The notes: generated by a model from the letters alone, not told the origin. A stretch of DNA of 32,000 nucleotides from Horticoccus luteus (GCF_019464535.1 NZ_CP080507.1:4020001-4052000); one strand, 5' to 3'; positions 4,276-31,149 are shown, counted from the first letter of the stretch. Made by a program: numbers and translations.

Positions 4276-4821
4276 GAAAGAGGAGGAGGCTGTCCGAAGG
4301 CCGAGCCGTCGGGCGATCGCGTGACATCGATCAACGAAGGCGGGCTAGGAGCGTCCGCCGCAAAACTGCCGCGAGCCGCCCCGCCAAAGCGAACCCAATC
4401 TCCCGCGTCTCAGAGATAAAGCATCGCGCCGCGCGTCAAAGGAGGCGGCTGACAATCACCAGTGAGCCTCACAGCCGCCGCGGGATTTCCATCGTGAGCA
4501 ATTCCGAACCGATCGCGTGAGCCATTGTCCGCGCTGCTGTCAAAAATTCGCGCCCCACCAATTCACGTGCTTCTGAAATGCCTGCGAGCCTGCTGAGTGT
4601 CACCCGTGGCTCCCTTTGAGCGAGGTGGAATGCTGCCAACCGAACAACCAACAAAAGACGGCCAGTCCCCCTCTCGCAGACGTCCTTGTCATGTCTTCGA
4701 ACTCACCGGTCTGCCCCGCAATGCGTCTGCTCCGAATTGGCGCGGCAACGCGATGATCGACCGCCGTCGGAATCGGTGCCGAGTCGGTGACTCCTGCGCA
4801 GGCGAACGCTTTGCCCTGCTT

Positions 4822-5262
4822 TCACAGATAAAACATTGCTTTGGCCAGAATCACGATCGCGAGCATGAGGACGGCGACGATGCGGTGCGTATAGCGGAAG
4901 CGGCACAAATCCATCGTGCCTTTGAATGAAGCGCGGATCGCGGCAACGAAGATTCCCAGCACCCCGAACGCCAGCACGACTTTGGTCGTCAGCAAAATCC
5001 CGAAACGCGTGTGGAAAAAGTCCGGCTGATTCGCGAACCGCACCCAAAACATCGCCCCGCCCGTCAGAAACAAGAGGCCGACGATCACCGGCATGAAGCC
5101 ACGAACACGCCGCGGAATTTCTGTGGCCAGCAGCTGCGACAATTCCCGCGGGAGCCGTTTCTCCAACGGCTCGATGACCAACACTTCGAAGAACACCGCC
5201 CCGATGAACGTGATCGCGCACAGCAAATGAACAGTAAGGATGATGCCGTAGTAGGAGGCCAT
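4822..5262 (-). CDS. small 4-TM membrane protein, CopD-like/unknown family
   Basis: 146 aa from ATG 5262 (MASYYGIILTVHLLCAITFIGAVFFE...), with four hydrophobic helices. Alternative ATG-ATG start at 5328 adds 22 non-hydrophobic residues. I prefer 5262 because an FNR-like box at 5352-5365 would place a class II transcription start near 5317. The family assignment is weak. Confidence 0.5.
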   Translation of the reverse strand: MASYYGIILTVHLLCAITFIGAVFFEVLVIEPLEKRLPRELSQLLATEIPRRVRGFMPVIVGLLFLTGGAMFWVRFANQPDFFHTRFGILLTTKVVLAFGVLGIFVAAIRASFKGTMDLCRFRYTHRIVAVLMLAIVILAKAMFYL

Positions 5263-5351
5263 GGTGAAGGGCGGAACCGTCGCGCTCCGGAGCAAGAAAC
5301 CACGGAGCGCGGGCGGCCCGGCCATCATCGCGCATCGTGCCGCTCCATGCC

Positions 5352-5365
5352 TTGACCCAAATCAA
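5352..5365. promoter_or_regulatory. FNR/CRP-family box, 9/10 match (TTGACccaaATCAA)
   Basis: Read directly from the sequence. It lies in the gap between the TlpA-like stop (5450) and the CopD-like gene. Confidence 0.45.
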
Positions 5366-5449
5366 CACGCCCGGACTTTCCCGCTCCACGCGCGCGCCCG
5401 GCCGACGCCGCCGCTTCGACCGACCACGGGCGAGGGACCGTCGGCCACG

Positions 5450-6013
5450 CTACGACGCCGGAGTGGGTGCCGGCGCCGGTGCGGCAGCGGGCGCCGTTAC
5501 CGAAGCGGCGGGCGCCGCAGCTTCGCGCCGAAACCAATCCGCGGACCACGCTTCATCGGGCACGCCACTGCGCGTGATCATTGTCCCGTCGGTGCCGATG
5601 AAATACGCCCGCGGCAACTCGCCGCGCCACGCGTGGTCCACCGAGTAGCGCAACCGGTCCTCGGACTCTTCGTTAAATTGCCAGAGTTCGGCCGCGCCCG
5701 TCGCGGCGTGACGGAGCAACTGCGCCACCTTTGGTTTCAATTCCGGCGGGTCAGCGGCGATGAGCACCACTTTCACGCGCGGAAACTCCTGTTGCAGGCG
5801 AGCGAGTAGGCCGAGCTCGTGCGCGCAGGGCGCACAAGTCGTGGACCAAAACGCGACGACCACCGGCCGGCCTTTCGCCGCTTCGCGGATTTCCGTGAAG
5901 CTGTGAGAATTAAAAATCCGCAATTCGGGAGCGGCAGCCGCACCGAGAGAAAAGAGCGCGCTGGTCAAAACCAGCGTGGCCCAACGGCAAACCTTTCGCA
6001 GAGCGGCATTCAT
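5450..6013 (-). CDS. TlpA/ResA-like periplasmic thiol:disulfide oxidoreductase
   Basis: 187 aa from ATG 6013 (MNAALRKVCRWATLVLTSALFSLGAAAA = signal/anchor). Thioredoxin motif FWSTTCAPCAHEL and an Ala/Pro-rich C-terminal tail. The start overlaps the upstream stop (ATGA at 6010-6013). The track's longer N-terminus is out of frame inside the upstream gene. Confidence 0.8.
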   Translation of the reverse strand: MNAALRKVCRWATLVLTSALFSLGAAAAPELRIFNSHSFTEIREAAKGRPVVVAFWSTTCAPCAHELGLLARLQQEFPRVKVVLIAADPPELKPKVAQLLRHAATGAAELWQFNEESEDRLRYSVDHAWRGELPRAYFIGTDGTMITRSGVPDEAWSADWFRREAAAPAASVTAPAAAPAPAPTPAS

Positions 6014-7188
6014 GGGAGGGCGACCAACGTCAGTGATTCGTTTTGCGTGTTCCACAGCACATAGAAGTGGCCGGCGAAGGTCAGCACGGCGGGATGACCC
6101 GATGCGCCGGATGTCGAGCCAAGTTCGGACTCGGTCCACGTGCGACCGCCGTCGTTGGAACTCATACTCCGAAGGCGCGTGTGTTGGCCGTCGAACGCCT
6201 TCCACGCCACCGCAACGCGTTTCCCGCTCGCGGCCACGGCGGCATGCTCAGCGGTTTCTCCGCCCACCCGCTGCTGGCCTTCAACCGCACCCGCTCGCAG
6301 CCGGCCATAGAAGACGCCCAGGCTCTGCGGCGCGCCGCTAAACCAGACCGCGTGCCAATCACCGGCCCCGTCTTCCGCGAGTCCCGGGCCATGGTGCGGG
6401 CAGGCATCGATATGCCAGTTGTCGAAGGTCGCCCGCGCCATCTCCGAGACGGTGCCATCCGCGTGCAGCGTGGCGACCGCGTGATCGCGAATATCGGGCG
6501 CAAACACGTGCCGCCACATCGCGCGCACATTGCCATCGGGCTCGGCGACGAGCGCGATCCGGCAGCATTCGCAACTGTGGTCCGCAACTTTGAAGTCTCC
6601 GCGAAACGTGGCGCCTTGATCGTCGGAAACGGCGAAGTAGATCGCGGCGCCGCGATAGGACTTCCCTTCCGCGGCCGCGCGCACGCCGTCGCGCTTGTCG
6701 ATCCACGCCACGAACACCTGGCCTCGGGCGTTGACCGTCAACGCATCGAAGCGATGGGTGATTTCCTGACGGTCGTGATGCACGATGACGGGCGGCGTGA
6801 ACGTCCGGCCGCCATCCAGCGAACGGGAGAATTTCACCTCGCCCGTGTAAGGCTTCGCGAGCGGCTTCGTCCACGTCACGTAAATCTCGCTCTTGGGCCC
6901 GAGCGCGATTTTCGGTCGCGCATCCCCGCCAGCGTCGGTCGTTTCGGGCAGCGGTGTGACCAGCACGGGATTTGACCACGAGCGGCCGAAGTCAGCGGAT
7001 TGCCGCACGGCGATGTGCCCGCTAATCTTCGCGACCACCCAGAGCGCGCCGTGCGCATCAAACGCGGCGTCGGCGCCCAGCTCGGTCTGCGCCGGATTCA
7101 TCGCACCGTGATGATGCATCGGCGCTTCGGCCCCGCGACTGACGGCCACGAGCCCGCAGGCGAGCAATGAGACAAGTAGAGTTCGCAT
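6010..7188 (-). CDS. secreted BNR/sialidase-fold beta-propeller protein with putative metal-binding motifs
   Basis: 392 aa with a signal peptide (MRTLLVSLLACGLVAVSRGA). Four BNR-type S-x-D-x-G-x-T/S-F/W motifs (SADFGRSW, SLDGGRTF, SDDQGATF, SNDGGRTW). MHHHGAM lies right after the signal peptide (7099-7119). HSCECC is at 6562-6579 and CPHH at 6391-6402. Confidence 0.7.
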   Translation of the reverse strand: MRTLLVSLLACGLVAVSRGAEAPMHHHGAMNPAQTELGADAAFDAHGALWVVAKISGHIAVRQSADFGRSWSNPVLVTPLPETTDAGGDARPKIALGPKSEIYVTWTKPLAKPYTGEVKFSRSLDGGRTFTPPVIVHHDRQEITHRFDALTVNARGQVFVAWIDKRDGVRAAAEGKSYRGAAIYFAVSDDQGATFRGDFKVADHSCECCRIALVAEPDGNVRAMWRHVFAPDIRDHAVATLHADGTVSEMARATFDNWHIDACPHHGPGLAEDGAGDWHAVWFSGAPQSLGVFYGRLRAGAVEGQQRVGGETAEHAAVAASGKRVAVAWKAFDGQHTRLRSMSSNDGGRTWTESELGSTSGASGHPAVLTFAGHFYVLWNTQNESLTLVALP

Positions 7189-7287
7189 AGTATTATTTTC
7201 TTATAGTAACCGCTGATTTCCGCTCGTGCGCACCGATTCCGAACCCGAAGACGTTTTCGCCCGGTGAGAGGTGGGGGCCGGTGAAAG

Positions 7288-7313
7288 ACCAATGATTGTT
7301 ATCGTTCATTGGT
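7288..7313. promoter_or_regulatory. AT-rich palindrome ACCAATGA-N10-TCATTGGT
   Basis: Perfect 8-bp inverted repeat in the 183-bp gap between the TBDR stop (7372) and the BNR start (7188). The core AATGATTGTTATCGTTCATT is loosely reminiscent of a Fur/Zur-type box. No U-tract follows on the minus strand. Confidence 0.3.
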
Positions 7314-7371
7314 GAGCGCGTCGTCGCGTGAATGAGCGGTTCTTTGGACATTTGTGAGTTGCGACTTGTCC

Positions 7372-9516
7372 TTACCATTTCACTTCGACCCCGCCATAGG
7401 CCGCGCGTGGCAGTCCCGGGCTGAAAACAGGTGTGCTGGAGGAAACCGAAGCGCTGTCGGCGAAACGCTTGTTTGTGGCGTTCATGAGACGACCAAACAG
7501 CGTGACGCGCCGGTTGAACGCATACGTGGCGCGGAGGTTGAGCAAGTCGTGGCCGGGATATTTGCCATAGGCGGGCGAATTGCTCGCCTCCAGCCAATAC
7601 GCCCCGACACGCACCCACTCGAGCTGCACCATCGCTCCGCCCGCCGGCCGCCAGGTGAGGCGGGTGTTGGCGAGCACGTGCGGGGCGGCTTCGATGTCGT
7701 GGCCGCTGTAATTCGCCGCACTCGTCGCCCAGTTAATATAGCGCTGATTGGAATACGACAGCGCCGTGTCGATCCTTAGTCCCGGCATCAGCGGCCCACC
7801 GAGCCCCGCCTCGACGCCGCGGTGATCGGTGCGGCCGGCGTTGACGTTGACCGTGACGTTGGTGGCGAGATCGCGCTGGCTGACGAGATCGTCGCGCTTC
7901 ACGAGATCGTAGCCGACCAGGTTGTAGGACCACGCGCCCACTTCGCCACGCACGCCGAGCTCGAATTGTCGCGCCTTGATCGGTTGGAGCGCGAGCCCGA
8001 GCCGGGCTTTCTCCTGCGCGTTGGCGGCGCTGCTGTCGTTGCCGGCGCGATAGAGCTGACTCTCGGAGGGGACGCGAAAACCGAAATTATACGACGTATA
8101 AAGATGGAGATGCGGCGTGAGCGTATAAGTAGCGCCCAACTTCGGGCTCGCCCGTGAGAAACTCCGATCGTCCGCGGCGATCTGACCGTAATACTTGGTC
8201 GCGCCGAGGACGTTTGCCGCCACCGTTCCGGACGGCAGGTGGTTGCTCATTGCGAAATCGAGCAGGTCGTAACGCAAGCCGGCGGTGAGGCGAAGGCGGG
8301 CCGTCGGCGAAAACTCCGTATGCACATAAGGCGACAAACTCTGGAACGTCACCCGGTAGTCATAAATCCGCGTGCCGAAACGATAGTCGCTGTAAATTGC
8401 GGTCGCACCGCTGCCGGTTCGCGTGACGAGGAGGTTGTCCTCCTGCCGCGAGCCCGGACTATAGTCAAAATCGATGCCGGCGATCAATCGCGTGCGCCCG
8501 GGAATGAATTTTCGCCGCCACTTCGCCATGAGGCCGTAGGAGACGTTGTGCGTGCGCTCGATTCGGGGGTCGAAGCTGAGGTTGTAGCTGCCGTTCAACT
8601 CCATCGCGTCGTCGCGGAAATAGGGAATGAACGAGAGGAGATTGTCGCCGGCGTGATGCTCGTATTCCGTGGAAATCCGCACCGCGCTCACGTTGCGATA
8701 CGCGATGGGCAGTCGGTTGAGCGTGGGGTTGTGCAAATAGTCGGCCAGCGGGAGCGGGGAATTCGCGCCGGTCTGTTGCGCAATGTGGGACACGGCGACC
8801 AAGGTCTTGAGCGTATCATCGCGCCCCACGGTTTGGTCGAAACGCAGATTCGCGCTCCGACGGTCGTAGGCTGTGCGGTCGCGCCAGCCATCGGTGTGCG
8901 TGGCGTTGAGGTCAGCCTGGAAGGCGCCGCGTTCGCCGAGCGCGCTGCCGCCGCTCGCCAGGCCGCGCCAGCTCCCGAACGAGCCGTATTCACCACTGAG
9001 ATCGCCGTGTGCGTAAGACACGGGCGCGCGCGACAGGACGTTGATGATACCGCCAATCGCGTCGGAACCGTAAAGGGCGGTGCCCGGGCCGCGCACGACC
9101 TCGATGCCGCCGGCCATCGGCAGGTTCACCTCGTAGAGCGCGTTGTGGTTAAAGAAACCCGTCGCGCGAATCGGAATGCCGTCTTCGAGAAAGAGGTAAA
9201 CCGGACTCGTGGTGAACGGCTGACGAATGGCGGTCGTGTGGCCTTCGCCGTTCGTCACGGCGATGGCCACGCCGGGAATCTGGCCGAGAATCTGGCCCGG
9301 GTGCAGCGGGGCGGTCTCGCGCACGCTATCGGCCGACACGGTGCCGATGGACGCTGGCGTTTCCGAAAGCAGAGCCCGTTCGCGGGTGCCCGTGACCGTG
9401 ATCGGATCGAGCGTGGTAACATCGCCGGCAGGCGGCGTATTGGCGGGAGCAGTGGTCTGTGCGAAAGCGGAGACTGCGTTGAAGAGGGCAAGCGGGAGAA
9501 TAATAAAGGTTTTCAT
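7372..9516 (-). CDS. TonB-dependent outer-membrane receptor
   Basis: 714 aa from ATG 9516 (MKTFIILPLALFNAVSAFAQ signal). TonB-box/plug region (DPITVTGTR..., IEVVRGPGTALYGSDAIGGIINV), a long beta-barrel with alternating pattern, and terminal ...GGVEVKW (aromatic C-terminus). Substrate cannot be read from the sequence, and the protein has no Cys. Confidence 0.9.
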   Translation of the reverse strand: MKTFIILPLALFNAVSAFAQTTAPANTPPAGDVTTLDPITVTGTRERALLSETPASIGTVSADSVRETAPLHPGQILGQIPGVAIAVTNGEGHTTAIRQPFTTSPVYLFLEDGIPIRATGFFNHNALYEVNLPMAGGIEVVRGPGTALYGSDAIGGIINVLSRAPVSYAHGDLSGEYGSFGSWRGLASGGSALGERGAFQADLNATHTDGWRDRTAYDRRSANLRFDQTVGRDDTLKTLVAVSHIAQQTGANSPLPLADYLHNPTLNRLPIAYRNVSAVRISTEYEHHAGDNLLSFIPYFRDDAMELNGSYNLSFDPRIERTHNVSYGLMAKWRRKFIPGRTRLIAGIDFDYSPGSRQEDNLLVTRTGSGATAIYSDYRFGTRIYDYRVTFQSLSPYVHTEFSPTARLRLTAGLRYDLLDFAMSNHLPSGTVAANVLGATKYYGQIAADDRSFSRASPKLGATYTLTPHLHLYTSYNFGFRVPSESQLYRAGNDSSAANAQEKARLGLALQPIKARQFELGVRGEVGAWSYNLVGYDLVKRDDLVSQRDLATNVTVNVNAGRTDHRGVEAGLGGPLMPGLRIDTALSYSNQRYINWATSAANYSGHDIEAAPHVLANTRLTWRPAGGAMVQLEWVRVGAYWLEASNSPAYGKYPGHDLLNLRATYAFNRRVTLFGRLMNATNKRFADSASVSSSTPVFSPGLPRAAYGGVEVKW

Positions 9517-9652
9517 AGCGCGGCGAGGGGTCACGCGCGAACACGCGTGAGAGAAGCGTCCAGTCCGCGACCGCGCGCGAATTCAGGACGAGCCGGGACC
9601 GGATCAGGCGCGTCAGGACGCTGCCGGCGGGCTTAACAGGAGGACACGAGAC

Positions 9653-10045
9653 TCACGCCACCGCTCGCGGCGGTGGCAGGGGTGGCGGCATGCGTCCGCG
9701 GCCCACCAAGCCCGGCGGCGCAAGAACGACGCCGAGAGGCCGCCGCGTCGGCGCCATGGGCATGACGGTCGCCGACGGCAGTAGCGTATCGAGCAGCTTC
9801 GCCTTGCCGAGTTCGGTCGTGGGCGGCGTGTTTTTTTCCTGCTGCTCCTTACCTTTTTGCACGACCTTGCAGAGGCTGCACATCTCGCCGGAAAATGTTT
9901 CCTGCGTGGCTGCGGTCAGCGACATGGTCTGGGCATAGCCCGTAAACATGCGCCCCCATGCAATGACCTGCATCAAGTCCCACTGGCAGCCCGTGGCGAA
10001 CAGCCACGCGGCCAGACAGCCATAGACTTGGAGGTGCCGACGCAT
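9653..10045 (-). CDS. small exported Cys-containing protein of unknown function
   Basis: 130 aa from ATG 10045 (MRRHLQVYGCLAAWLFATGC QWDLMQVIAWGRMF...GEMCSLCKVV...); the track start at 10057 is a TTG. High GC3, a possible lipobox (FATGC), a CxxC pair and a Pro-rich tail. I do not recognise the family. Confidence 0.5.
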   Translation of the reverse strand: MRRHLQVYGCLAAWLFATGCQWDLMQVIAWGRMFTGYAQTMSLTAATQETFSGEMCSLCKVVQKGKEQQEKNTPPTTELGKAKLLDTLLPSATVMPMAPTRRPLGVVLAPPGLVGRGRMPPPLPPPRAVA

Positions 10046-10183
10046 CGGGCGAATCAACCGGCCGCGCCGCTGTTAGCAAGCGCAGGGGACGGTTCGGCCA
10101 GGCGCCGGAGCGCGAAATTAGCGGCGCAGGAGTGGTTCATAAACAAGCGAGTGAGGATCACGCTGAATGGTTCGTGCGTCTGC

Positions 10184-11032
10184 TCAGGAGCCGACGACCG
10201 CTTTCACCGCGGCGATCACCTCCGGCGTCTTCCAGCCGTTGCCGCGCCAGATCTGGCGCACAGTTCCGTCGGGACCGATCAAGACCGTGCACAAGGTGTG
10301 ATCGAGCGTGAGGCCGTTCCGCTCGGTGAAAACGGCAAACGCCTTCGTCAGCGCCGCGATCTCCGCTGGTGTGCCGGTCGCAAACTGCCAGACCGCGAGA
10401 TCCGCGCCGACGGCCTCCCCGTAAGACTTCAACACCGCGGGCCGGTCAAACGTAGGGTCGAGGGTGATGCTGAGCAGCCGGGCCTGCGCGTGCAGCCGGT
10501 CGTCAGTCAGGATCGCTTTCTGCAATTCGGCAAAACGAAACGCGAGCGCGGGGCAGTATTCCGGCACCGGGCAACGGGTGAAGATAAACGTTACAATTGT
10601 CGCGTGCCCGCGGAGCGCGGCGAGGGAAAGGGGCGCGCCATCTTGGTTGAGAAGAGAAAATTCCGGCATGGCGTCGCCCTCGCGAACGCGACGGCGGGGC
10701 GCCGCTTCGGTCGCAGCAGGAGCGGGCGCACTCGATCCGATCACGACAAAAGCGGTCGCGAACCAATCGTCGCCCGCCGTATGCAGCTCGAAGCGGACGC
10801 GGTCGTCCGCGACCAAACGGGCGGCTTCCGCGGGCCGGGCGACGCGAAACGCCATCGTCATCGCCGGCATCACGCCGGGGATATTGTCGTGGGCGATGCG
10901 AATGTAGCCGTCCGCGTCGATCGCCTGGCGCACCACACCAGTCACGGGGTGAACGCCGTCAGCAGCGGGGGCGCGCACCACGAGTAATCCGGCGAGCGCG
11001 AGGAGCATTGATATAAGCATGCGCGTTGTCAT
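10184..11032 (-). CDS. CusF-like Cu(I)-binding domain fused to a SCO1/SenC copper chaperone domain
   Basis: 282 aa with a signal peptide. The N-terminal domain G..IRIAHDNIPGVMPAMTMAFRV...DDRVRFEL is a CusF_Ec-type Met/His motif. An Ala/Pro linker follows. The C-terminal thioredoxin fold TFIFTRCPVPEYCP...LSITLDP...DHT is Sco-like (Cys pair plus distal His). Confidence 0.85.
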   Translation of the reverse strand: MTTRMLISMLLALAGLLVVRAPAADGVHPVTGVVRQAIDADGYIRIAHDNIPGVMPAMTMAFRVARPAEAARLVADDRVRFELHTAGDDWFATAFVVIGSSAPAPAATEAAPRRRVREGDAMPEFSLLNQDGAPLSLAALRGHATIVTFIFTRCPVPEYCPALAFRFAELQKAILTDDRLHAQARLLSITLDPTFDRPAVLKSYGEAVGADLAVWQFATGTPAEIAALTKAFAVFTERNGLTLDHTLCTVLIGPDGTVRQIWRGNGWKTPEVIAAVKAVVGS

Positions 11033-11067
11033 GAGCGGAAATATATCCGTGTGGGTGCAGCCTGGCC

Positions 11068-11081
11068 TTGATGGACATCAA
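11068..11081. promoter_or_regulatory. perfect FNR/Dnr/NnrR-type box TTGATggacATCAA (box 1)
   Basis: 10/10 match to TTGAT-N4-ATCAA. Its centre at 11074.5 is 42.5 bp from the A of the CusF-Sco ATG (11032). A TATATT hexamer on the minus strand (11045-11040) ends 7 nt before that ATG. Confidence 0.75.
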
Positions 11082-11123
11082 GCAAAGCCCGCAAGGCGGC
11101 GGGATGATAAAAGCTTGGAGCTC

Positions 11124-11137
11124 TTGATACAAATCAA
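11124..11137. promoter_or_regulatory. perfect FNR/Dnr/NnrR-type box TTGATacaaATCAA (box 2)
   Basis: 10/10 match. Its centre at 11130.5 is 46.5 bp upstream of the azurin-like ATG (11177) and 56 bp from box 1. Confidence 0.75.
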
Positions 11138-11176
11138 GGCCTGCGGCCACGAGATCCGATACGGTGGGGCTCTTCT

Positions 11177-11704
11177 ATGAAAAACCACTCCTCCCTTTTT
11201 CTCAGCGGCGCCCTCCTGCTCGCGCTCGGACTGACCGGCTGCGGCCCGTCCGAACGCGCCGCCGACCCCGCTGAAACGGCAGCTGCGGCGACGTCCACTT
11301 CCGATGCCGCCCGGCCCTCGGCAGGTCGCGCGATCGCGATCACCGCGAACGATACGATGAAGTTCAACATGATCGAAATCCACGCCAAGCCCGGCGAGGC
11401 GCTCGCGGTGACGTTGATCAACGAGGGCACCGTGCCGAAGTTTTCGATGGGGCACGACTGGGTGCTCCTAGCGGCCGACACGGACCTCAACGCGTTTGCC
11501 TCCGAGGCGGCGACCGCCGCGGGGACCGACTACATTCCGGCGTCGTTCAAAGACAAGGTGCTGGCCGCGACGAAGCTGCTCGGGCCGAAAGAGTCCGACA
11601 CCGTGCGGTTCTACGCGCCGAAGACGCCGGGCCGGTATCCGTATATCTGCGCCTTTCCCGGCCACATGCAGGTCGGGATGAAGGGTGAATTGATCGTTGA
11701 GTAA
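11177..11704 (+). CDS. azurin-family cupredoxin, predicted lipoprotein
   Basis: 175 aa. Lipobox LGLTGC, then an Ala/Pro/Thr/Ser linker. Azurin-like ligand blocks MGHDWVL and YICAFPGHMQVGMKGELIV (Cys, His, Met; the loop is one residue longer than the classical azurin CTFPGHSALMKG). Confidence 0.85.
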   Translation: MKNHSSLFLSGALLLALGLTGCGPSERAADPAETAAAATSTSDAARPSAGRAIAITANDTMKFNMIEIHAKPGEALAVTLINEGTVPKFSMGHDWVLLAADTDLNAFASEAATAAGTDYIPASFKDKVLAATKLLGPKESDTVRFYAPKTPGRYPYICAFPGHMQVGMKGELIVE

Positions 11705-11726
11705 CGTTTCCGAACCCCGCCAACCC

Positions 11727-13631
11727 ATGAAACTAATCAGCTCCTTACTCGCGCCCGCGGTTGCCGCGGCCGCTCTCGTGGCCCTCCCCGGCTGTAATCC
11801 GCCGGGCAAGTCCGGCGCCGGCGATGCCGGGAAATCCGTTGCGGCCAACTCGGCCGCGGCCCGCACGTGGGTCGCCCCCGGCCAGAAGGATGAGTTTTAT
11901 CTCTTCTATTCCGGCGGGCATTCCGGCCAGGTCTATGTGGCCGGACTCCCGTCCATGCGCCATCTGGCGACGATTCCCGTCTTCGGCCGCTACCCGGGCA
12001 CCGGCTACGGTTACGACGAAGCGTCGAAGGCGATGCTCGGCGACTACACGTGGGGCGACGTGCACCATCCGGGCCTCTCGAAGAAGGACGGACTCTACGA
12101 CGGCCGCTGGCTCTTCGTGAATGATAATGCGAACAACCGCATCGCCCGCATCGATCTCCGCGACTTCAAGACGAAACAGATTCTCGGCCCGATCCCGAAC
12201 TCGATGGGCAACCACGGTTCGTCATTCGTGACCGACAATACCGAATACGTTTTGGTAGCGACGCGCTTCTCCGTGCCGCTGCCGAAGGGCCGCTATGCGG
12301 ATCCGGCCAACTACGAAAAGGAATTTAACGGCATGGTGAGCGGCATCAAAGTCGATCCCACCTCGGGCACGATGAAAGTAGGCTGGCAGATCATCACGCC
12401 GCCCTTCGATTGGGATCTCGGCTCCACGGGCAAGGGCCCGAGCGAAGGCTGGGCTTTCTGGACGTCCTATAACACCGAGATGGCGCACGACAATCTCGAG
12501 GCCAACGCCTCGCAGAAGGACCGCGACTACGCCGCGATCGTGAACTGGAAAGCCGCCGAGGCCGCGGTGAACGCCGGCCAGACCACCATGCTCGATGGCG
12601 TGGCCGTGATCGATCCGGCGAAAACCCCCGGCGTGCTGTATTATCTGCCGGTGCCGAAGTCGCCCCACGGTATCGATGTCGACCCGACCGGCCGCTGGGT
12701 CGTAGCCGCGGGCAAACTGCAGCCCGTCGCCTCGGTCTTCGACTTCGAAAAGCTCCAGGCCGCGATCGCGAAAAAGGATTTCGAATCCGAGTTTCGCGGC
12801 GTGCCGGTGATTCGCTACGATGCCGCACTCGAAGGCGAAGTGCCGGTCGGCCTCGGCCCGCTGCACACGCAATATGACGGCGCGGGCAACGCCTACACGT
12901 CGCTCTTCATCGAATCTGCCGTCGCCAAATGGAAGATGCCGCCCTGGTCCGCGGACGAGCGCGCCGATCTCAACAAGGTCGTGCTCGATAAGATCGCGGT
13001 GCATTACAACATCGGGCATCTCGTTGTCGGCGGCAGCGACACCAAGAAGCCCTACGGCAAGTATCTCGTGGCGATGAACAAGCTCTCGAAGGGCCGCCAT
13101 CTTTCGGTGGGACCATCGCAGCCCGAAGACAGCGAACTCATCGACATCACCGGCAAGAAAATGGAGTTGATCTATGAAGCCTTCACCGAGCCGGAGCCGC
13201 ATTTCGCGCAGATCCTGAAGGCCGATGCGATCAGCCCGATCGAAGTTTATCCGAAGGCGGAAAACGACGATCCCAACGCCGTCTGGGATGCGAAAGACAC
13301 CGGTGCCACCCGCCGCGGGAATGTGGTCGAAGTGAAAATGATCGCGATCCGCAGTCATTTCACGCCCGACCGCATCGACGTGAATGAAGGCGACGAACTT
13401 GTGCTCCATGTCACCAACGTTGAACAGACGCCGGACATGATCCACGGCCTCGGCATCGTCGAACAGAACGTCAACCTCGTGATCGATCCCGGTGAGACGA
13501 AGACCGTCCGGATCAAGATGACGAAGACGGGCGTGTTTCCTTTCTATTGCACCAACTTCTGCTCCGCGCTCCACCAGGAGATGCAGGGCTATCTGGCGGT
13601 GAAACCCGCCGTGGCCGTCGCGACGCAATAA
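11727..13631 (+). CDS. nosZ: nitrous-oxide reductase, clade II (Sec-type, no twin-arginine motif)
   Basis: 634 aa from ATG 11727 (the track start at 11697 is a TTG). CuZ histidines are in DVHHP, GNHGS, SPHG, GPLHT, IGHL and EPH. The CuA site is MIHG...CTNFCSALHQEMQGY. The signal MKLISSLLAPAVAAAALVALPGC has no RR motif. A nosB-type gene lies downstream. Confidence 0.95.
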   Translation: MKLISSLLAPAVAAAALVALPGCNPPGKSGAGDAGKSVAANSAAARTWVAPGQKDEFYLFYSGGHSGQVYVAGLPSMRHLATIPVFGRYPGTGYGYDEASKAMLGDYTWGDVHHPGLSKKDGLYDGRWLFVNDNANNRIARIDLRDFKTKQILGPIPNSMGNHGSSFVTDNTEYVLVATRFSVPLPKGRYADPANYEKEFNGMVSGIKVDPTSGTMKVGWQIITPPFDWDLGSTGKGPSEGWAFWTSYNTEMAHDNLEANASQKDRDYAAIVNWKAAEAAVNAGQTTMLDGVAVIDPAKTPGVLYYLPVPKSPHGIDVDPTGRWVVAAGKLQPVASVFDFEKLQAAIAKKDFESEFRGVPVIRYDAALEGEVPVGLGPLHTQYDGAGNAYTSLFIESAVAKWKMPPWSADERADLNKVVLDKIAVHYNIGHLVVGGSDTKKPYGKYLVAMNKLSKGRHLSVGPSQPEDSELIDITGKKMELIYEAFTEPEPHFAQILKADAISPIEVYPKAENDDPNAVWDAKDTGATRRGNVVEVKMIAIRSHFTPDRIDVNEGDELVLHVTNVEQTPDMIHGLGIVEQNVNLVIDPGETKTVRIKMTKTGVFPFYCTNFCSALHQEMQGYLAVKPAVAVATQ

Positions 13632-13650
13632 ACTGCGCGCTTCCGCTCCC

Positions 13651-13682
13651 GTGTGCGGCGAAGGACCGCCTTCGCCGCACAC
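13651..13682 (+). terminator. perfect 14-bp GC-rich stem-loop between nosZ and nosB (attenuator or stabiliser candidate)
   Basis: GTGTGCGGCGAAGG-accg-CCTTCGCCGCACAC; all 14 pairs checked by hand. It starts 20 nt after the nosZ stop and is followed by CCUCUUUCC (only a weak U-tract) and the nosB ATG at 13695. Confidence 0.55.
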
Positions 13683-13694
13683 CCTCTTTCCGCC

Positions 13695-14312
13695 ATGAAA
13701 ACCTTCTTCCTCCGCGAGTCCCTGTTTCTGCGCCGCTCACTCAGCCTGCGCTCGCGCTTGTTGCTGCTGCTCGCCGCGGTGACGGTTGTGGCGGCCGCCT
13801 TTCTGCCGCTCTGGCAGATCAGGCTCGTGGCGCCGCAATACGAAGAAGGCCTGTCGCTGCATATTTATACCCACAAACTCGTCGGCGGTAACCACGGGCA
13901 GGATCTGCACGAGATCAACATGCTGAATCACTATATTGGGATGAAGCCGCTCGTGGAGGAGGATTTCATCGAGATGCGGTGGATGCCCTTTGCCTTCGGC
14001 ATCTTCGCGCTGCTCGCGCTCCGCGCGGCGGTCGTGGGCCGGATGCTGAGCCTGATCGACCTCGGAGCACTGTTCACCTATTTTACGTTTTTCTCCCTCG
14101 GGAGCTTTTACTATCGGCTTTATACTTACGGCCACGAGCTCAACCCGCACGCGCCGATGACAATCAAGCCGTTCACGCCGATCCTGCTGGGCAGCCAGCA
14201 AATCGCCAACTTTGTCCAGACCAGCCTGCCGCAAACCGGCGGCGTGCTGTTCACCCTTTTTCCCATCCTGATCGCGGGCGCGATTTGGTTTTCCCGTCAC
14301 GAGGAGCCATGA
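13695..14312 (+). CDS. nosB: NosB-like integral membrane protein (clade II nos accessory)
   Basis: 205 aa from ATG 13695, with several TM helices. It sits immediately downstream of a clade II nosZ and is translationally coupled to nosD. Assigned by synteny, since I cannot align it to a reference from memory. Confidence 0.65.
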   Translation: MKTFFLRESLFLRRSLSLRSRLLLLLAAVTVVAAAFLPLWQIRLVAPQYEEGLSLHIYTHKLVGGNHGQDLHEINMLNHYIGMKPLVEEDFIEMRWMPFAFGIFALLALRAAVVGRMLSLIDLGALFTYFTFFSLGSFYYRLYTYGHELNPHAPMTIKPFTPILLGSQQIANFVQTSLPQTGGVLFTLFPILIAGAIWFSRHEEP

Positions 14313-15643
14313 GCCGCGCGCGCGCCGTTTCGATCTTCCGGCCCGCACTCCTGTGCGCGTTGCTGAGCATCGGAGCCGTTGCGCCCGCGCGCGCGGCGAC
14401 GTCTGGCGATGCGTTGCGGGCCGAAATCGCGGCCGCGGCGCCCGGCGCGACCGTGCGGGTGAAGGCAGGGATTTACGACGGGCCGTTCGTCATCGAAAAA
14501 TCCCTGCATTTGCTGGGCGAAAACGGCGCCGTGCTGCGGGGCGACGGCGTGGTCCATGTCATCGCCGTGCAGGCGCGCGACGTGGAAATCGGCGGATTTT
14601 CGATTCGGCGCTCGGGCCGGAATCTCTTCAACGATACCGCCGCGGTTTACATCACGGCGGACCGCGCGTTCATCCACGACAACCGGATTTCCGACATGCT
14701 GCATGGGATTTATGTGCGCAAGGCGCACGATTGCCGCATCCAGCACAATGTGATTCTCGGCGACGGCGCGCGCGATGAAGTCATCGCCGACCCGGTGACG
14801 GCGGGGCTCAGAGCCGCCGATGCCGCCGCCGGTGATTTGTGCAGCGTGCCTGATCCACTCGACCGGCGCGGGAACGGAATTCATCTGTGGAACTCCTCGG
14901 GACATCGCATCAGCGGCAACCGTATCCGCGGCACGCGCGATGGCATCTATTTCTCCTTCACGAACGACACGCTCACCCGCGACAACGACATCGCCCACGT
15001 GCGCTACGGGCTGCATTATATGTATTCGGACGGAAATGTGTTTGAGCGCAATGTCTTCTCCGACAATGCCGCCGGCGCCGCGCTGATGTATTCGAAGCGG
15101 CTCGTGCTGCGCGCGAACCGTTTCGTCGCCAACCGCAGCCATCGCGCCTACGGTTTGCTGCTCCAATCCATCGACGACACGCGAATCGAGAACAACACGA
15201 TCGAGGGCAATACCGTCGGGCTCTTTCTGGAGAACGGGAACGGCGACACGATCCGCGCGAACCGCATCGTGGGAAATTATGTCGGCCTGCGCGTGGACGA
15301 CAGCACCGCCGGCAGCCGGTTTTTTGAAAACAATTTCTCGGGCAACATTCATCCACTGGAGACGAGCGGCAACAATGGCGCGAACCTCTGGGCGGTCGCC
15401 GGGCGCGGGAATCACTGGGATAACGCCGAGTCGCTCGATCTGAATCGCGATGGCGTCGCCGATCTTCCGCATCACGAAGCCGACCTGTTCGGGCCATGGC
15501 GGCGCACGCTGCCGGCCATCGGTTTGCTTTCCGCCAGTCCGGGAGAACGCCTCCTGCGATTCATCCACAGCCGTCTGGCGCTGCCCGGCCTCCCGGGCGC
15601 GACGGACCCTCATCCGCTGGTTGCGGCTCCGATCACTCCATGA
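14309..15643 (+). CDS. nosD: NosD, periplasmic parallel beta-helix copper/sulfide maturation protein
   Basis: 444 aa from ATG 14309 (ATGA overlap with the nosB stop). Signal peptide MSRARAVSIFRPALLCALLSIGAVAPARA. Repetitive ..N.I.GN..GI.. beta-helix turns. Positioned before nosF and nosY. Confidence 0.85.
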   Translation: MSRARAVSIFRPALLCALLSIGAVAPARAATSGDALRAEIAAAAPGATVRVKAGIYDGPFVIEKSLHLLGENGAVLRGDGVVHVIAVQARDVEIGGFSIRRSGRNLFNDTAAVYITADRAFIHDNRISDMLHGIYVRKAHDCRIQHNVILGDGARDEVIADPVTAGLRAADAAAGDLCSVPDPLDRRGNGIHLWNSSGHRISGNRIRGTRDGIYFSFTNDTLTRDNDIAHVRYGLHYMYSDGNVFERNVFSDNAAGAALMYSKRLVLRANRFVANRSHRAYGLLLQSIDDTRIENNTIEGNTVGLFLENGNGDTIRANRIVGNYVGLRVDDSTAGSRFFENNFSGNIHPLETSGNNGANLWAVAGRGNHWDNAESLDLNRDGVADLPHHEADLFGPWRRTLPAIGLLSASPGERLLRFIHSRLALPGLPGATDPHPLVAAPITP

Positions 15644-16353
15644 TTTCCGTCCAAGAGCTAAAGAAGTCGTTTGGCGCGCGCCGCGTGCTCGATGGGCTCA
15701 CGTTTCGCGCCGAAGCCGGGGTAATCACGCTGCTGATCGGCTGTAATGGCGCGGGCAAGACCACCGCGCTGCGCCTGCTCGCCGGCCTGGCGAATCCCGA
15801 AAGCGGCACGATCAACATCGATGGCCACGATCTCGCCACCGACCGCCGCCGCGCGCTCGCCGGGTTGTCGTTTCTTCCGCAGGCGCCGCGCTTTCATCCG
15901 CGGCTCACCACGCGGCAGGTCGCGCACTTTTATGCGCAGTTGCGCGGACGCGAAGCAGTCGCCGCCGAGCGCGAGTTGAGTGCCTGGGGACTCAGCGAAT
16001 TCGCCCGCGTGCCCACGGGAAAACTCTCCGGCGGATTGCGTCAACGCCTCGCCCTCGCGGTGTTCGCACTCGCGGACGCGCCGGTGCTGCTGCTCGATGA
16101 GCCCGGGCTGAGTCTCGACCCCGCGTGGCGCGATCAACTGCAGGAATTTCTCGCGGCGCAGGCCCAAGCCGGGCGCACGATTCTGGTCGCCACTCATCTG
16201 CTCGGCGAGTGGGAAGGCCGCGCCGATCGCTGCCTGCTCCTCGCCGAAGGACGCTACGCGGCAACCGTGCCGCCCGACCAGTTGCGCGACGTGTTCCGGC
16301 GCAAGGACGCGCCAGCCAGCCAATGGGCCAACGCGGAGGCTGCAGTGCGATGA
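15640..16353 (+). CDS. nosF: NosF, ABC transporter ATPase
   Basis: 237 aa from ATG 15640 (ATGA overlap with the nosD stop). Walker A GCNGAGKTT, signature LSGGLRQR, Walker B LLLDEP. Confidence 0.9.
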   Translation: MISVQELKKSFGARRVLDGLTFRAEAGVITLLIGCNGAGKTTALRLLAGLANPESGTINIDGHDLATDRRRALAGLSFLPQAPRFHPRLTTRQVAHFYAQLRGREAVAAERELSAWGLSEFARVPTGKLSGGLRQRLALAVFALADAPVLLLDEPGLSLDPAWRDQLQEFLAAQAQAGRTILVATHLLGEWEGRADRCLLLAEGRYAATVPPDQLRDVFRRKDAPASQWANAEAAVR

Positions 16354-17159
16354 AATCCCCCGTCATCCCTTCTTTTGTCACGGTGGCGCGAGCCGCCGCC
16401 GGTCGCGAATTTTTGAGCCATCGCCTCAACCGGTTTCTTTATGCGCACGTGCTGCTCGTGTTGACTGCAGGTTTGCTGCCGTTGCTCACGCCGGGAGACG
16501 CTCTCGCGCGCGGAGCCGCGTGGTGGCTGCTGCATGCGGTGCTCTACGCGATTTCACTTTCCGCGCTGCTGCTTGGGCTCAGCTCGGCGCACGCCGAGAC
16601 CGATGAGTTCACGTGGTTGCTGGGGCAACCCGCCGGCATCGGGCCATGGCTCGCGGGCAAAGCGGCGGCGCTCATCGTGCTCGTCGCCGGCTCCACGGCG
16701 TTGCTGGGTGTGCCGACCTGGTGCGCGGGCGGCGGCTCGCGGGAATTGTTTCTCGTGACGGCGGGCGCCGCAGGCGTGAGCGCGGTGTGCGCGATGGCCG
16801 GCCTGGTTGTAGGCTGCTGGATTCGCGATCACGTGCCGGGGCTGATCGCCGCCGTCGCCGTGTGGTTCGTGCTCCTGTTTGGCGCCGATTTTTTACTCCT
16901 CGCCGTGGCGGGCGGAGAACTGACCCAGGCACATCCCGACGTCTGGGTCGGCGTGTTGATGATGAATCCGCTCGATGCCTTTCGCGTCACCGTGCTGTTC
17001 ACCGTCGAGCGCGCGGCGTTCAGCGGCATCGATGCCGGCCAGCTCACCGCTTGGTGGGTCACGCACGCGCTGGCGTGGCTCGTGACGATTCTCACCGCGT
17101 GGATCGCGGGCGCCGGCGCGTGCGCTTGGCTCGGCGCACGCCGCCGGTCTGATGGATAA
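16350..17159 (+). CDS. nosY: NosY, ABC-2 type membrane permease
   Basis: 269 aa from ATG 16350 (ATGA overlap with the nosF stop). Six hydrophobic segments and an MNPLDAFR motif. Positioned after nosF. Confidence 0.85.
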   Translation: MKSPVIPSFVTVARAAAGREFLSHRLNRFLYAHVLLVLTAGLLPLLTPGDALARGAAWWLLHAVLYAISLSALLLGLSSAHAETDEFTWLLGQPAGIGPWLAGKAAALIVLVAGSTALLGVPTWCAGGGSRELFLVTAGAAGVSAVCAMAGLVVGCWIRDHVPGLIAAVAVWFVLLFGADFLLLAVAGGELTQAHPDVWVGVLMMNPLDAFRVTVLFTVERAAFSGIDAGQLTAWWVTHALAWLVTILTAWIAGAGACAWLGARRRSDG

Positions 17160-17191: not shown

Positions 17192-18172
17192 TTAGTTGGC
17201 CGCCTTTATCAGATCGTCGACGGAATCACTCTCGGCGACGACGTCGGCAAACAACCAGGACGACAAATACCGTTCGCTGCTGGACGGGATGATGACCACG
17301 ATCTGTTTGCCTTCGTTCTCGGGACGGCGCGCGAGTTGGAGCGCGGCCCAGACGGCGGCGCCGGCGGAGATGCCGATCGGGATGCCGTCGAGCTGGTTGA
17401 CCTGCTTGCTCACCGGTCCGGAATCCTTGTCGTTCACCCGGATGACCTCGTCGTAAATCTTCGTGTTTAAGACCTGCGGCACGAAGCCCGCGCCGAGGCC
17501 CTGCAATTTGTGCGGCCCGGGCTGGCCGCCCGACAACACCGCGGAGGTATCAGGCTCGACCGCCACGATGCGCACGGCCGGTTTCCGCGCCTTTAACACT
17601 TCGCCCACGCCGGTGATCGTGCCGCCCGTGCCGATGCCGGAGACCACAAAATCCACCTTCCCGTCGGTATCGCGCCAGATTTCCTCCGCCGTGGTTTTGC
17701 GGTGAATCGCGGGATTCGCAGGATTGGCGAATTGTTGAAGGATGACGCTGTTGGGAATTTTCGCCGCGAGTTCCTCGGCCTTGGCCATCGAGCCCTTGAT
17801 GCCTTTGGCCGCTTCCGTGAGCACGAGTCGTGCGCCGAGAACCTTGAGCATTTTGCGGCGCTCGACCGACATCGACTCCGGCATTGTCAGGATGAGTTTC
17901 AGCCCTTTCGCCGCCGCCACGAAGGCGAGAGCGATGCCGGTGTTGCCGCTGGTCGGCTCGATGAGCACGGTGTCCGCGTTGATTTTTCCGCTGCTCAAAG
18001 CCTCCTCGATCATGGCGACGCCGATGCGATCTTTGACGCTCGAAAGCGGATTGAAGAACTCGAGCTTTAACAGGATCTCGGCTTTGGCGCCATGGGCGGC
18101 GGCCGTGCGATTGAGGCGCACGAGCGGAGTGTTGCCGATCGTTTCGGTGATATTGTTATAGATCTTGGACAT
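17192..18172 (-). CDS. cysK: cysteine synthase A (O-acetylserine sulfhydrylase)
   Basis: 326 aa. [14 protein letters not shown], the PLP-lysine block [23 protein letters not shown] and [10 protein letters not shown]. Confidence 0.9.
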
Positions 18173-18195
18173 AAAAAAAGGCGGCGCGGGGCTGC

Positions 18196-18630
18196 TCAGT
18201 TTTCCACCTGCGCCTGCACGTCGTGAATGGAGCGGAGCAATTCGTGCAAGGTGGGCCCAAACTGCCGCAACTCGGCGAGATGGATGGCGGACAAGCGTTC
18301 AATGACCTTCTCGCCTTCACGGGTAAGATGCAGTTCCACTTGGCGCCGGTCATGCGAGGAGGGTTCGCGCCGCAAAAGGCGCCGTCGCACCAGCCGGTCG
18401 ACCAGCCCCACAGCGCTGTGATGCCGAAGCTGCAGACGCTCCGCCAGTTCCGCAATGGAAGCGAAGTCGCGACCCGGCACGCCCTTGATCGCCAGCAACG
18501 CTTGATGCTGCTGCGCGGTGAGCCCGGCTTTGCGCGCGGCATCGCGGCTGAAGTTCATGAACTGTCGCAACGTGTGACGAATCGCGGCCAGCGATTCGTA
18601 GTGGGTCTTGGTGAGGCGGAGCGACGACAC
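18196..18630 (-). CDS. MarR-family transcriptional regulator
   Basis: Winged-helix region [14 protein letters not shown]...[50 protein letters not shown]. The start is uncertain: GTG 18630 (144 aa, preferred) or GTG 18660 as in the track. The latter would bury the inverted repeat in coding sequence. Confidence 0.7.
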
Positions 18631-18643
18631 GGCAAGGATTAGA

Positions 18644-18671
18644 ATTGCATTGTATCGCACTACGATGCAAT
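18644..18671. promoter_or_regulatory. inverted repeat ATTGCAT-N14-ATGCAAT in the MarR/ClC divergent region
   Basis: Perfect 7-bp arms in an AT-rich patch 18 nt upstream of the ClC ATG (18689). Plausible MarR operator. Confidence 0.4.
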
Positions 18672-18688
18672 CTTGAAACCTCTATTTT

Positions 18689-20503: not shown

Positions 20504-20726
20504 GCACGCCGGCCGGCGGTGAGCACGCGCTCCCGCCCCGCTTCAGCTGCGCGTGCGGCGCATGGGTTGACGCGCGCTGGACGCGGCGGACGGCGTTTGC
20601 TCGCACGGCAGCGGCGTCGGCGGACGCGCGCTAATTTGTCGGCGGGATTTTTCGGACCTTGATGCAAGTCATGGTTTGCGCAGGCCGTCCGGGAGTAGCC
20701 TTCGAGGCGAACCTCGCCCCGCAACC

Positions 20727-23204: not shown

Positions 23205-23348
23205 GGCGCGCGGCGCGTCGTGGCCGCCCGGCGGCGCTCAACGTCGGCCGGGCGCCGGCGGAGATCATGCGCCTGCCCCGCGGCGACTGGCTGCGCAGCG
23301 CTTTGACGAAACGCCGGTGAGTGGTCGGCGTGCGCCGGGTGGCGCGGA

Positions 23349-24833: not shown

Positions 24834-24861
24834 GAGATCGAGGGGACGACGGTTGCGAGTT

Positions 24862-26319: not shown

Positions 26320-26343
26320 GGCGGGTCAGGCGCGGACCGCGGA

Positions 26344-27771: not shown

Positions 27772-27786
27772 CGGGATGACGGGGGT

Positions 27787-30921: not shown

Positions 30922-31086
30922 GAAAGCAACAGGCTCCCATTCGTCCGCCGCCTCAATGACCAAGCGACTAACGCCGTTCAGTAGCCGCCGCTGGGATGGC
31001 GTATCGGCCAGACCGCGGAGCGCTTGACGGTGCCGAAGGAAGATCAACCGGCCCTGCGCCCGCGTCGAACTGCGAGCGAACGGTTG

Positions 31087-31129: not shown

Positions 31130-31149
31130 TACGCGGGCACACGTCGCTC

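Follow-up and report, generated by a model that had tools for sequence, protein, structure and literature searches.

The window analysed here is a stretch of DNA of 32,000 nucleotides (nt) from Horticoccus luteus (GCF_019464535.1, NZ_CP080507.1:4020001-4052000), a member of the Opitutaceae (Verrucomicrobiota), and our subject is the row of minus-strand genes at 4822-11032 which faces a divergent cluster for nitrous oxide (N2O) reductase, nos. Calling of open reading frames (ORFs) on the window gives six consecutive ORFs in this row, as an earlier note on the same DNA had described: in the order of transcription, a CusF-Sco fusion, a small ORF with a CxxC motif, a TonB-dependent receptor, a beta-propeller, a TlpA-like thioredoxin and a CopD-like membrane protein (Table 1). 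The propeller is 100% identical to the hypothetical protein K0B96_16385 of H. luteus, and start codons matching those of NCBI are used for the small ORF, the receptor, the thioredoxin and the CopD-like protein, whose lengths in amino acids (aa) follow from them. Pfam was scanned with longer versions of these four (small ORF 9653-10057, receptor 7372-9534, thioredoxin 5450-6205, CopD-like 4822-5328). The Pfam and NCBIfam searches agree with the domain identities that the note had proposed, with BNR_2 and CopD below cut-off and no Pfam family for the small ORF, and its suggestion that the gene set is related to copper is likewise supported. The note had gone further and read the six genes as a single module dedicated to supplying copper to NosZ. 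In our reading the region is fairly likely to consist instead of three juxtaposed copper- or denitrification-related units and not of one dedicated operon: unit A is the CusF-Sco gene, unit B comprises the leader-like small ORF, the receptor, the propeller and the thioredoxin, and unit C is the CopD-like gene.

Table 1. Features of the minus-strand gene row and of the facing nos cluster; positions are counted from the first letter of the window.
Feature	Position	Strand	Remarks
Unit A, exported CusF-Sco fusion	10184-11032	-	Pfam CusF_Ec and SCO1-SenC
Unit B gene 1, leader-like ORF, 130 aa	9653-10045	-	ATG 10045; NCBI hypothetical protein K0B96_16395
C56-SL-C59 (CxLC) of leader ORF	9869-9880	-	from the Opitutaceae leader alignment
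PPPR of leader ORF	9665-9676	-	four codons ahead of stop
CTTGC element, candidate unit B promoter element	10076-10080	-	35 nt upstream of leader ATG
Spacer between leader ORF and receptor, 136 nt	9517-9652	-	C>G on coding strand
Unit B gene 2, TonB-dependent receptor, 714 aa, uncharacterised subfamily	7372-9516	-	ATG 9516; Pfam Plug and TonB barrel
Unit B gene 3, exported beta-propeller with Asp-boxes	6010-7188	-	BNR_2/BNR below threshold only
MHHHGAM of propeller, N-terminal	7099-7119	-	motif
HSCECCR of propeller, invariant	6559-6579	-	motif
CPHHG of propeller	6388-6402	-	motif
Unit B gene 4, TlpA-like periplasmic thioredoxin, 187 aa	5450-6013	-	ATG 6013; Pfam AhpC-TSA; NCBI TlpA family
WSTTC60-AP-C63, thioredoxin active site	5825-5836	-	TlpA/ResA-type WxxCxPC
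Unit C, CopD-like membrane protein, 146 aa	4822-5262	-	ATG 5262; K0B96_16375; four hydrophobic segments
Perfect FNR/CRP-type box TTGATACAAATCAA	11124-11137		centre 46.5 nt from azurin-like ATG (11177)
Perfect FNR/CRP-type box TTGATGGACATCAA	11068-11081		centre 42.5 nt from CusF-Sco ATG (11032)
9/10 FNR-type box TTGACCCAAATCAA	5352-5365		centre 96.5 nt upstream of the corrected CopD-like ATG
Divergent nos cluster	11177-17159	+	azurin-like lipoprotein to nosY
Azurin-like lipoprotein	11177-11704	+	nos cluster
nosZ	11697-13631	+	nos cluster
Conserved membrane ORF	13653-14312	+	no Pfam/NCBIfam match
nosD	13979-15643	+	nos cluster
nosF	15496-16353	+	nos cluster
nosY	about 16350-17159	+	nos cluster

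The product of unit A matches both Pfam families well above threshold (CusF_Ec 54 bits for a cut-off of 27, SCO1-SenC 79 bits for a cut-off of 22.8). Its CusF ligand residues are H48, M55, M58 and M60, and the pattern H-x6-M-x2-M-x-M is conserved. The Sco domain carries a Sco-like motif, C154-PVPEY-C160-P, together with H245 (the His of DHT). The canonical CxxxC copper motif of SCO1/SenC is not present in the protein; a Cx5C arrangement (CPxPxxCP; window 10553-10575, residues 154-161) replaces it and is kept in nearly all CusF-Sco fusions sampled. The neighbourhood was compared in a metagenome scan of 80 loci anchored on CusF-Sco, in which orthologs are those with at least 43% identity. The azurin-like (cupredoxin) gene adjoins CusF-Sco in 21 of the 21 orthologs with at least 600 base pairs (bp) upstream (divergently in 20, on the other side in L121), and nosZ lies beside it in all ten with at least 1.5 kilobases (kb) of upstream sequence, whereas none of 31 fusions with less than 43% identity is nos-linked; the connection of CusF-Sco with azurin-nosZ made in the earlier note is thus upheld. 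Neither receptor nor propeller follows it in any of the nine orthologs with at least 3 kb downstream, which speaks against a dedicated module. Because of these three counts, gene order indicates that the link to nos belongs to CusF-Sco and not to the receptor module, and CusF-Sco is, on the same comparative grounds, a conserved divergent partner of the azurin-nosZ operon.

A search of the whole window with the pattern TTGAT-N4-ATCAA, allowing at most one mismatch, finds four FNR-type boxes where 0.36 are expected, a number which none of 100 shuffles reached. The intergenic region 11033-11176 contains two perfect boxes, one close to each divergent gene: the 42.5 nt distance from box to CusF-Sco noted earlier is correct, while the single perfect box thought to be shared with azurin-nosZ is in fact two. 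Two boxes, 57 bp apart, also occur in a metagenomic lineage (L082-84). In relatives, the distance from box to ATG is held nearly fixed: between the centre of the proximal box and the CusF-Sco ATG it is 41.5 nt in eight distinct related contigs and 40.5 and 43.5 nt in two more, this spacing of 40.5-43.5 nt being counted from the ATG and not from a mapped transcription start, and between box and cupredoxin ATG it is 44.5-48.5 nt wherever the cupredoxin start of a relative aligns from residue 1. A distance of 41.5 nt is that of a class II FNR/CRP site from the transcription start, so the CusF-Sco and azurin-like mRNAs are probably leaderless or nearly so, a proposal against which it counts that it is drawn from spacing alone. 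The N-terminal Arg of the signal peptide favours the first ATG as the true start. Consensus sigma-70 promoters and intrinsic terminators were also sought in the intergenic gaps, with nothing useful found.

On this basis an activator of FNR/Dnr type, binding ~41.5 nt ahead of the ATG, would switch on unit A at low oxygen, probably from a leaderless mRNA. The exported fusion would take Cu(I) on its CusF domain and pass it to its own Sco domain, which would load CuA of NosZ and perhaps azurin too; CusF-Sco is a good candidate for a NosZ CuA assembly factor. In Paracoccus, SenC2 and PCuC are required for N2O reduction at low copper (PMC7558416). The arrangement resembles the Bradyrhizobium TlpA-ScoI-CoxB and Paracoccus SenC2-PCuC systems in having a Sco-domain protein beside nosZ and, within the same row, a CxPC thioredoxin of TlpA-like type. 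It differs from such systems in that Sco and CusF here share one chain and the Sco motif is Cx5C, not CxxxC, in that the window is without PCuAC, and in that gene fusion and synteny partner the thioredoxin with the propeller and not with Sco.

Unit B has a different distribution. It was followed in a genome scan of 80 loci anchored on the propeller (Opitutaceae, Burkholderiales, Rhodocyclales and Lysobacterales) and by tblastn with the window proteins. The propeller is immediately preceded by an orthologous receptor in 46 of 65 loci, and in three loci inspected among the other 19 (L009, L044 and L048) a different receptor of ~800 aa takes its place; the thioredoxin is directly downstream of the propeller in 68 of 76. 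Among the 40 loci flanked on each side by at least 5 kb, nosZ is found near the propeller only once, in Azohydromonas. One conserved six-gene module beside nosZ, as claimed before, is not compatible with this count, and conservation of the neighbourhood beside nosZ, on which the earlier note had itself staked its reading, is lacking for the receptor, the propeller and the thioredoxin. PCuAC genes are present in 24 of the 80 propeller loci (ORF clustering; Pfam 130 bits), and Sco or CusF-Sco genes in a few (for example L060 and L003). In the locus of the closest propeller relative (76% identity, L081) unrelated genes come after the thioredoxin. In Azohydromonas australica (L071, 2-13160) nosZ and nosD lie within 5 kb of the triad, and this is the sole such propeller locus outside the Horticoccus lineage.

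Ahead of the leader-like ORF, CTTGC or TTGAC occurs exactly 35 or 39 nt before the start codon (ATG or GTG) in 13 of 16 Opitutaceae loci, compared with one of 96 background windows. Since this element keeps a fixed distance in so many loci, unit B is suggested to have its own promoter. If CTTGC is a -35 element the leader mRNA would be leaderless too, and a convincing -10 hexamer is not seen after it. A sigma-54 reading of the element was dropped, there being no GG at -24 in the window or in L001. Taken together with its neighbours, we take unit B to be a general copper-acquisition operon under a CruR-like leader (see below) which, as far as gene content indicates, occurs in many genomes without nosZ.

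The CopD-like gene of unit C follows yet another pattern. The 168-aa version scores 30.7 bits against CopD (PF05425; cut-off 32.1), and a precomputed table gives PF05425 for the 146-aa protein and most of its homologs. The family forms 153 clusters, uniformly of ~146 aa, whose members with a source name come from Opitutaceae or Verrucomicrobia. In the Opitutaceae locus L168 (5987-9924) one row holds, in order, nirK, whose product includes a cytochrome c domain, an FGE-sulfatase/NirV-like gene, Sco, the homolog and a globin gene; a Crp/Fnr regulator adjoins this row and two FNR boxes lie upstream of nirK. In L166 the neighbours of the homolog are ScdA, hemerythrin and globin genes; it adjoins a nos-linked CusF-Sco gene in L093 and L102, and in L082 it is 10 kb from the unit B module. 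FNR boxes stand ahead of the homologs of L093, L166 and L167 and, in L168, ahead of the nirK operon holding the homolog, that is, in all cases examined, and the 9/10 box noticed before the last gene of the window is indeed there. Judged by these neighbourhoods, the CopD-like gene is a separate FNR-box gene of a denitrification or nitric oxide (NO)-response neighbourhood, independent of units A and B; a place in a NosZ route, as formerly assigned to it, does not agree with its company in relatives, where it stands with FNR-box genes of nirK or NO-stress neighbourhoods. The 546-bp gap after this gene (4276-4821) holds no convincing ORF and precedes a same-strand sugar operon of nagB, amidohydrolase, MFS and PfkB genes; Rfam gives zero families across the whole window, this gap included.

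These distributions bear on the proposal that the whole row is a single operon, or a single functional route, which is induced anaerobically and dedicated to NosZ, leading from outer-membrane copper uptake to insertion into CuA and CuZ and substituting for NosL. All six genes point the same way, FNR boxes stand at either end, and a terminator-like site between CusF-Sco and the leader ORF was not found. The nos cluster of the window is without nosL, as had been stated, and no nosL was found after nosY in the relatives L087 and L101. The order of the window, from nosZ through azurin, the boxes, CusF-Sco, leader and receptor to propeller and thioredoxin, is repeated in the metagenomic lineage L082-84; that A followed by B is conserved in a second lineage, so that a local functional coupling to NosZ is possible, weighs against a division into units. 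However, 39 of the 40 fully flanked loci with the receptor-propeller-thioredoxin module have no nosZ nearby, the nos-linked CusF-Sco loci with sufficient sequence are without the module, the nearest propeller relative has other genes after its thioredoxin, the CopD-like gene is 10 kb off in L082 and lies in other places in other genomes, the leader has a conserved promoter-like element ahead of it, and neither a NosL-like nor a CuZ-specific factor is seen among these genes. We therefore regard a single NosZ-dedicated route as distinctly unlikely. What stands of it is the link of CusF-Sco to azurin-nosZ; neither the receptor, propeller and thioredoxin nor the CopD-like gene appears to belong to it. 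Units B and C are not consistently tied to nosZ and among the three units only A is so tied. Because L082-84 repeats the order of the window, the juxtaposition of A and B is, by this comparison, one inherited within a small clade. In H. luteus and this one related lineage unit B is directly downstream of unit A, and read-through from the FNR promoter of A into B could for this reason couple copper import to N2O respiration locally.

The receptor of unit B gave no match to a known family of copper receptor. NCBIfam models all score below cut-off, and the OprC/NosA model TIGR01778 is not among the matches listed (25 of 31). Its best solved relatives are YncD and PqqU (1e-18), with no OprC/NosA chain among its PDB matches at E-values up to 1e-3. 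OprC/NosA identity, to which the earlier note had alluded, was therefore rejected for the window receptor, and it was rejected too for the alternative receptors beside propeller homologs. The protein resembles NosA in role only: both are outer-membrane TonB-dependent receptors encoded near nosZ, with anaerobic co-expression plausible, whereas the window-type module is usually unlinked to nosZ. A further match, to the plug domain only (1.5e-9), is to 9rvq, the chain of a TonB receptor that carries no name and could be, but need not be, CrtA.

The propeller family comprises 281 clusters of 50% identity (E < 1e-30) from Verrucomicrobiota and Proteobacteria, and identity between the phyla is 57-76%. 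The motifs MHHHGAM, HSCECC and CPHH reported before are present. Across 48 homologs CxCC is invariant, as are the Cys, the Pro and the first His of CPHH and several further His, with the second His of CPHH nearly so; CxCC is found in 105 of 108 full-length representatives. The match to BNR_2 (25.9 bits) remains below the cut-off of 31.4. An AlphaFold2 model (pLDDT 88) retrieves from the PDB only generic six- or seven-bladed propellers with TM-scores of 0.4-0.65, profile similarity to sialidases covers only a 25-residue Asp-box, and PDB profile and fold searches gave no solved structural relative beyond generic propellers. Membership of the GH33 sialidases or of BNR_2 was rejected on account of the sub-threshold score, the restriction of the similarity to Asp-boxes and the low TM-scores. 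A literature search for a BNR/sialidase-like protein in copper operons, or for Opitutaceae nosZ with copper, found nothing.

The thioredoxin matches AhpC-TSA (29.9 bits, cut-off 26), with weak TlpA/ResA matches in NCBIfam. In fold, WxxCxPC active site and export signal it conforms to the periplasmic thioredoxins of TlpA/ResA type, but it is not an equivalog of rhizobial TlpA (NF047696, 26 bits for a cut-off of 230). Its start codon overlaps the stop codon of the propeller gene in an ATGA at 6010-6013, the coupling which had been noticed earlier. In 20 of 150 cluster representatives (P0260, P0279, P0288, P0314, P0285 and 15 others) propeller and thioredoxin are fused, and the C-terminal domain of these fusions is homologous to the window thioredoxin (E-values of 1e-8 to 1e-38). 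Fusion, ATGA coupling and conserved adjacency together argue that the two proteins work together. From these points and the conserved Cys and His, and from the copper-linked neighbours and copper-sensing leaders, we infer that the propeller accepts or processes copper in the periplasm and that the thioredoxin services its cysteines.

A different explanation would take unit B out of copper biology: the receptor would import a siderophore, B12, a PQQ-like cofactor or a glycan, and the propeller would be a glycosidase or lectin. The best family and PDB matches of the receptor are of siderophore, heme, PqqU, YncD and BtuB types, the best fold matches of the propeller are sialidases and lectins, and databases call it a sialidase; two further points count against our own reading of unit B, namely that the receptor matches no known copper-receptor family and that the copper ligands of the propeller are read from conservation alone. 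All of the matches named nevertheless lie far below family cut-offs, those to sialidases amount to Asp-boxes and modest TM-scores, and the invariant residues of the propeller are Cys and His, not the sialidase catalytic set. Its neighbours, moreover, are PCuAC, Sco, CusF-Sco and DUF2946/CruR leaders, and it is found fused to a thiol-disulfide oxidoreductase. A function unrelated to copper is thus very unlikely.

The nature of the small ORF at the head of unit B can be approached through known copper-responsive leaders. DUF2946 proteins are represented by CruR, which carries an export signal, a CXXC and, ~45 residues beyond the CXXC, a C-terminal arrest motif, RAPP (Roy et al., PMC9426467); it is followed by a long spacer, acts via Rho-dependent termination and is syntenic with genes for TonB transporters, PCuAC, Sco and AhpC_TSA (PMC9426467). 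CutF-like proteins have been defined by a length below 150 aa, a signal peptide, a Cys/His motif, PP within the last 15 residues and a same-strand gene within 1000 nt downstream (PMC9973294). The window ORF agrees with all these rule-based CutF-like features, its signal peptide being judged by hydropathy only (two to three basic residues followed by a 15-residue hydrophobic stretch). It also has the CruR-type layout, with an export signal, first position in its unit, a 136-nt spacer and then a TonB-dependent receptor.

Comparison with relatives strengthens this likeness. The family consists of 323 clusters, none of which has a name or a Pfam domain, and the few with a source name are from Opitutaceae or Verrucomicrobia. 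In 13 of 13 Opitutaceae leaders (the window and 12 homologs) the CxxC is invariant, and (P)PPR[VA] ends two to four residues before the stop and 62-68 residues after the CxxC; the tail of the window ORF reads PPPLPPPRAVA. The spacer before the receptor measures 93-225 nt across these leaders. All of them begin with a basic and hydrophobic segment, and the N-terminal half is conserved as well, including W22-D23-xx-Q26-V and A29-W30-G-R32-M33-F. A small ORF with a CxxC and C-terminal PP stands directly ahead of the receptor in 24 of 45 loci, and among loci retrieved with the leader as query the order leader then receptor was found twice. In Betaproteobacteria the ORFs just ahead of orthologous receptors are DUF2946 (29.9 bits, above the gathering score, and 22.3 bits), with R[AGD]PP 46-49 residues after the CxxC. 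One verrucomicrobial locus (L170, 3672-8682) carries CusF-Sco, a leader with a 4-nt overlap, a receptor and PepSY_TM, which is the cruR-crtA-crpH layout. In another (L169, 7001-12266) a leader, a receptor, a 107-aa ORF without family and a second receptor follow in tandem.

By this analogy the small CxxC ORF looks like a regulatory leader peptide of CruR/CutF type and not like a chaperone or trafficking component; architecture, position and motif spacing all set it apart from the copper-trafficking role suggested in the earlier note. Several results weigh against the likeness to CruR. Pfam DUF2946 (PF11162) does not match two Opitutaceae leaders at E-values up to 10, and an hhalign comparison of the Opitutaceae leader alignment (A2) with alignment A3 gives a probability of 0.9%, with no DUF2946 homology detectable, so the leader was not accepted as a sequence homolog of DUF2946. 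The PPPR and the spacing of 62-68 residues differ from the RAPP and ~45 of CruR, and the C>G skew of the spacer is modest and found elsewhere too. A CutF-style stem-loop masking the receptor start was also rejected, since the spacer has no significant RNA structure (z = -0.56).

The alternative is a mature, functional copper-binding protein of the periplasm or membrane, a chaperone or receptor partner, in place of a cis-acting leader. The lack of detectable homology to CruR would suit it, as would conservation of the whole N-terminal half, which is more than a pure arrest peptide needs, and cofitness had first led Price et al. to propose a role in copper homeostasis for DUF2946. We nonetheless consider a mature protein unlikely, given an architecture that fits every rule for CutF/CruR-like sensors, a position equivalent to that of DUF2946 before orthologous receptors, a fixed spacing between CxxC and C-terminal prolines and a long spacer after the ORF.

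If the ORF is a leader, it would act, by analogy with Bordetella CruR, as a co-translationally exported sensor peptide. When copper is scarce, ribosome arrest at the C-terminal PPPR would keep transcription and translation running into the receptor gene, and copper bound by the CxLC of the nascent chain would relieve the arrest and shut the operon off; arrest combined with Rho-dependent termination is thus what we infer for the window leader from the CruR precedent. The receptor would then import copper, probably as a chelate, and the periplasmic propeller would accept or strip the metal on a Cys3/His cluster. The TlpA-like thioredoxin would keep the propeller cysteines reduced or supply electrons for the reduction of Cu(II) to Cu(I), after which copper would pass to Sco- or PCuAC-type chaperones.

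Several known systems share parts of this scheme. One is cruR-crtA-crpH of Bordetella pertussis, which encodes a DUF2946 leader, a TonB-dependent copper transporter and a PepSY_TM protein, and where a small exported CxxC ORF with C-terminal prolines also comes first, before a long spacer and a TonB-dependent receptor, and where PCuAC, Sco and AhpC_TSA-type genes are syntenic; the modules of Betaproteobacteria are headed by true DUF2946. CrtA-type transporters are recognised by membership of the CrtA sequence cluster and by PepSY_TM following them in >75% of loci; the receptor of the window is followed instead by propeller and thioredoxin. Downstream of CutF-like genes, of which Rhodobacter capsulatus cutFOG is the model, TonB-like proteins and PCuAC are frequent (Ozturk et al. 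2023, PMC9973294). CutF unfolds a stem-loop over a short spacer, unlike the longer spacer of the window, for which no significant fold is predicted, and the text and supplement of the CutF-like survey name no members from Verrucomicrobiota (PMC9973294). Bradyrhizobium pcuABCDE and the methanobactin system MbnT/MbnP/MbnH likewise encode a TonB-dependent receptor together with periplasmic copper-handling proteins, PCuAC being often present, whereas the periplasmic partners in the window, a Cys/His propeller and a thioredoxin, are reported in neither.

We put forward, as a tentative proposal, that the Cys/His propeller and its dedicated TlpA-like thioredoxin may constitute a new class of periplasmic copper-handling machine, which would receive copper or a copper chelate from the TonB-dependent receptor, release or reduce it by thiol chemistry and hand Cu(I) to Sco/PCuAC, the operon in Opitutaceae being gated by an unrecognised family of arrest peptides (CxLC...PPPR-stop) that arose independently of DUF2946.

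Beyond the gene row, the same order of the nos cluster is found in L087, L092 and L101. NosZ has a lipoprotein-type N-terminus without a twin-arginine motif and for this reason fits clade II. The membrane ORF between nosZ and nosD has three to four hydrophobic segments and is 60-73% identical to counterparts in L087, L092, L101, L121 and L133; it may be a NosB-like protein. In L101 a bacterial globin gene comes after nosY. The remainder of the window (17192-31614) is unrelated and includes a pyridoxal phosphate (PLP)-dependent enzyme, a CBS-domain ClC channel, an ORF at 20676-23204 resembling ATP-cone ribonucleotide reductases and, at 24862-31101, a chondroitin-type PL8 lyase accompanied by a sulfatase and an MFS transporter. 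Two large ORFs overlap at 23388-24902 (+) and 23349-24935 (-), the plus-strand one without a family match.

Copper supply limits N2O reductase and hence N2O emission, and the path of copper to periplasmic cuproenzymes once it has crossed the outer membrane is largely unknown. Gene adjacency beside nosZ tempts over-reading, which comparison across loci corrects. CusF-Sco emerges as a companion specific to nosZ and linked with an FNR box in nos clusters of Opitutaceae type without nosL, and as a candidate CuA assembly factor for clade II-type NosZ. The receptor-propeller-thioredoxin operon is widespread, and its periplasmic proteins, named "sialidase" and "TlpA family" in databases, yet sit in copper operons. 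The putative copper-sensing leader peptides at its head would form a new family, extending the CruR/CutF principle to another phylum.

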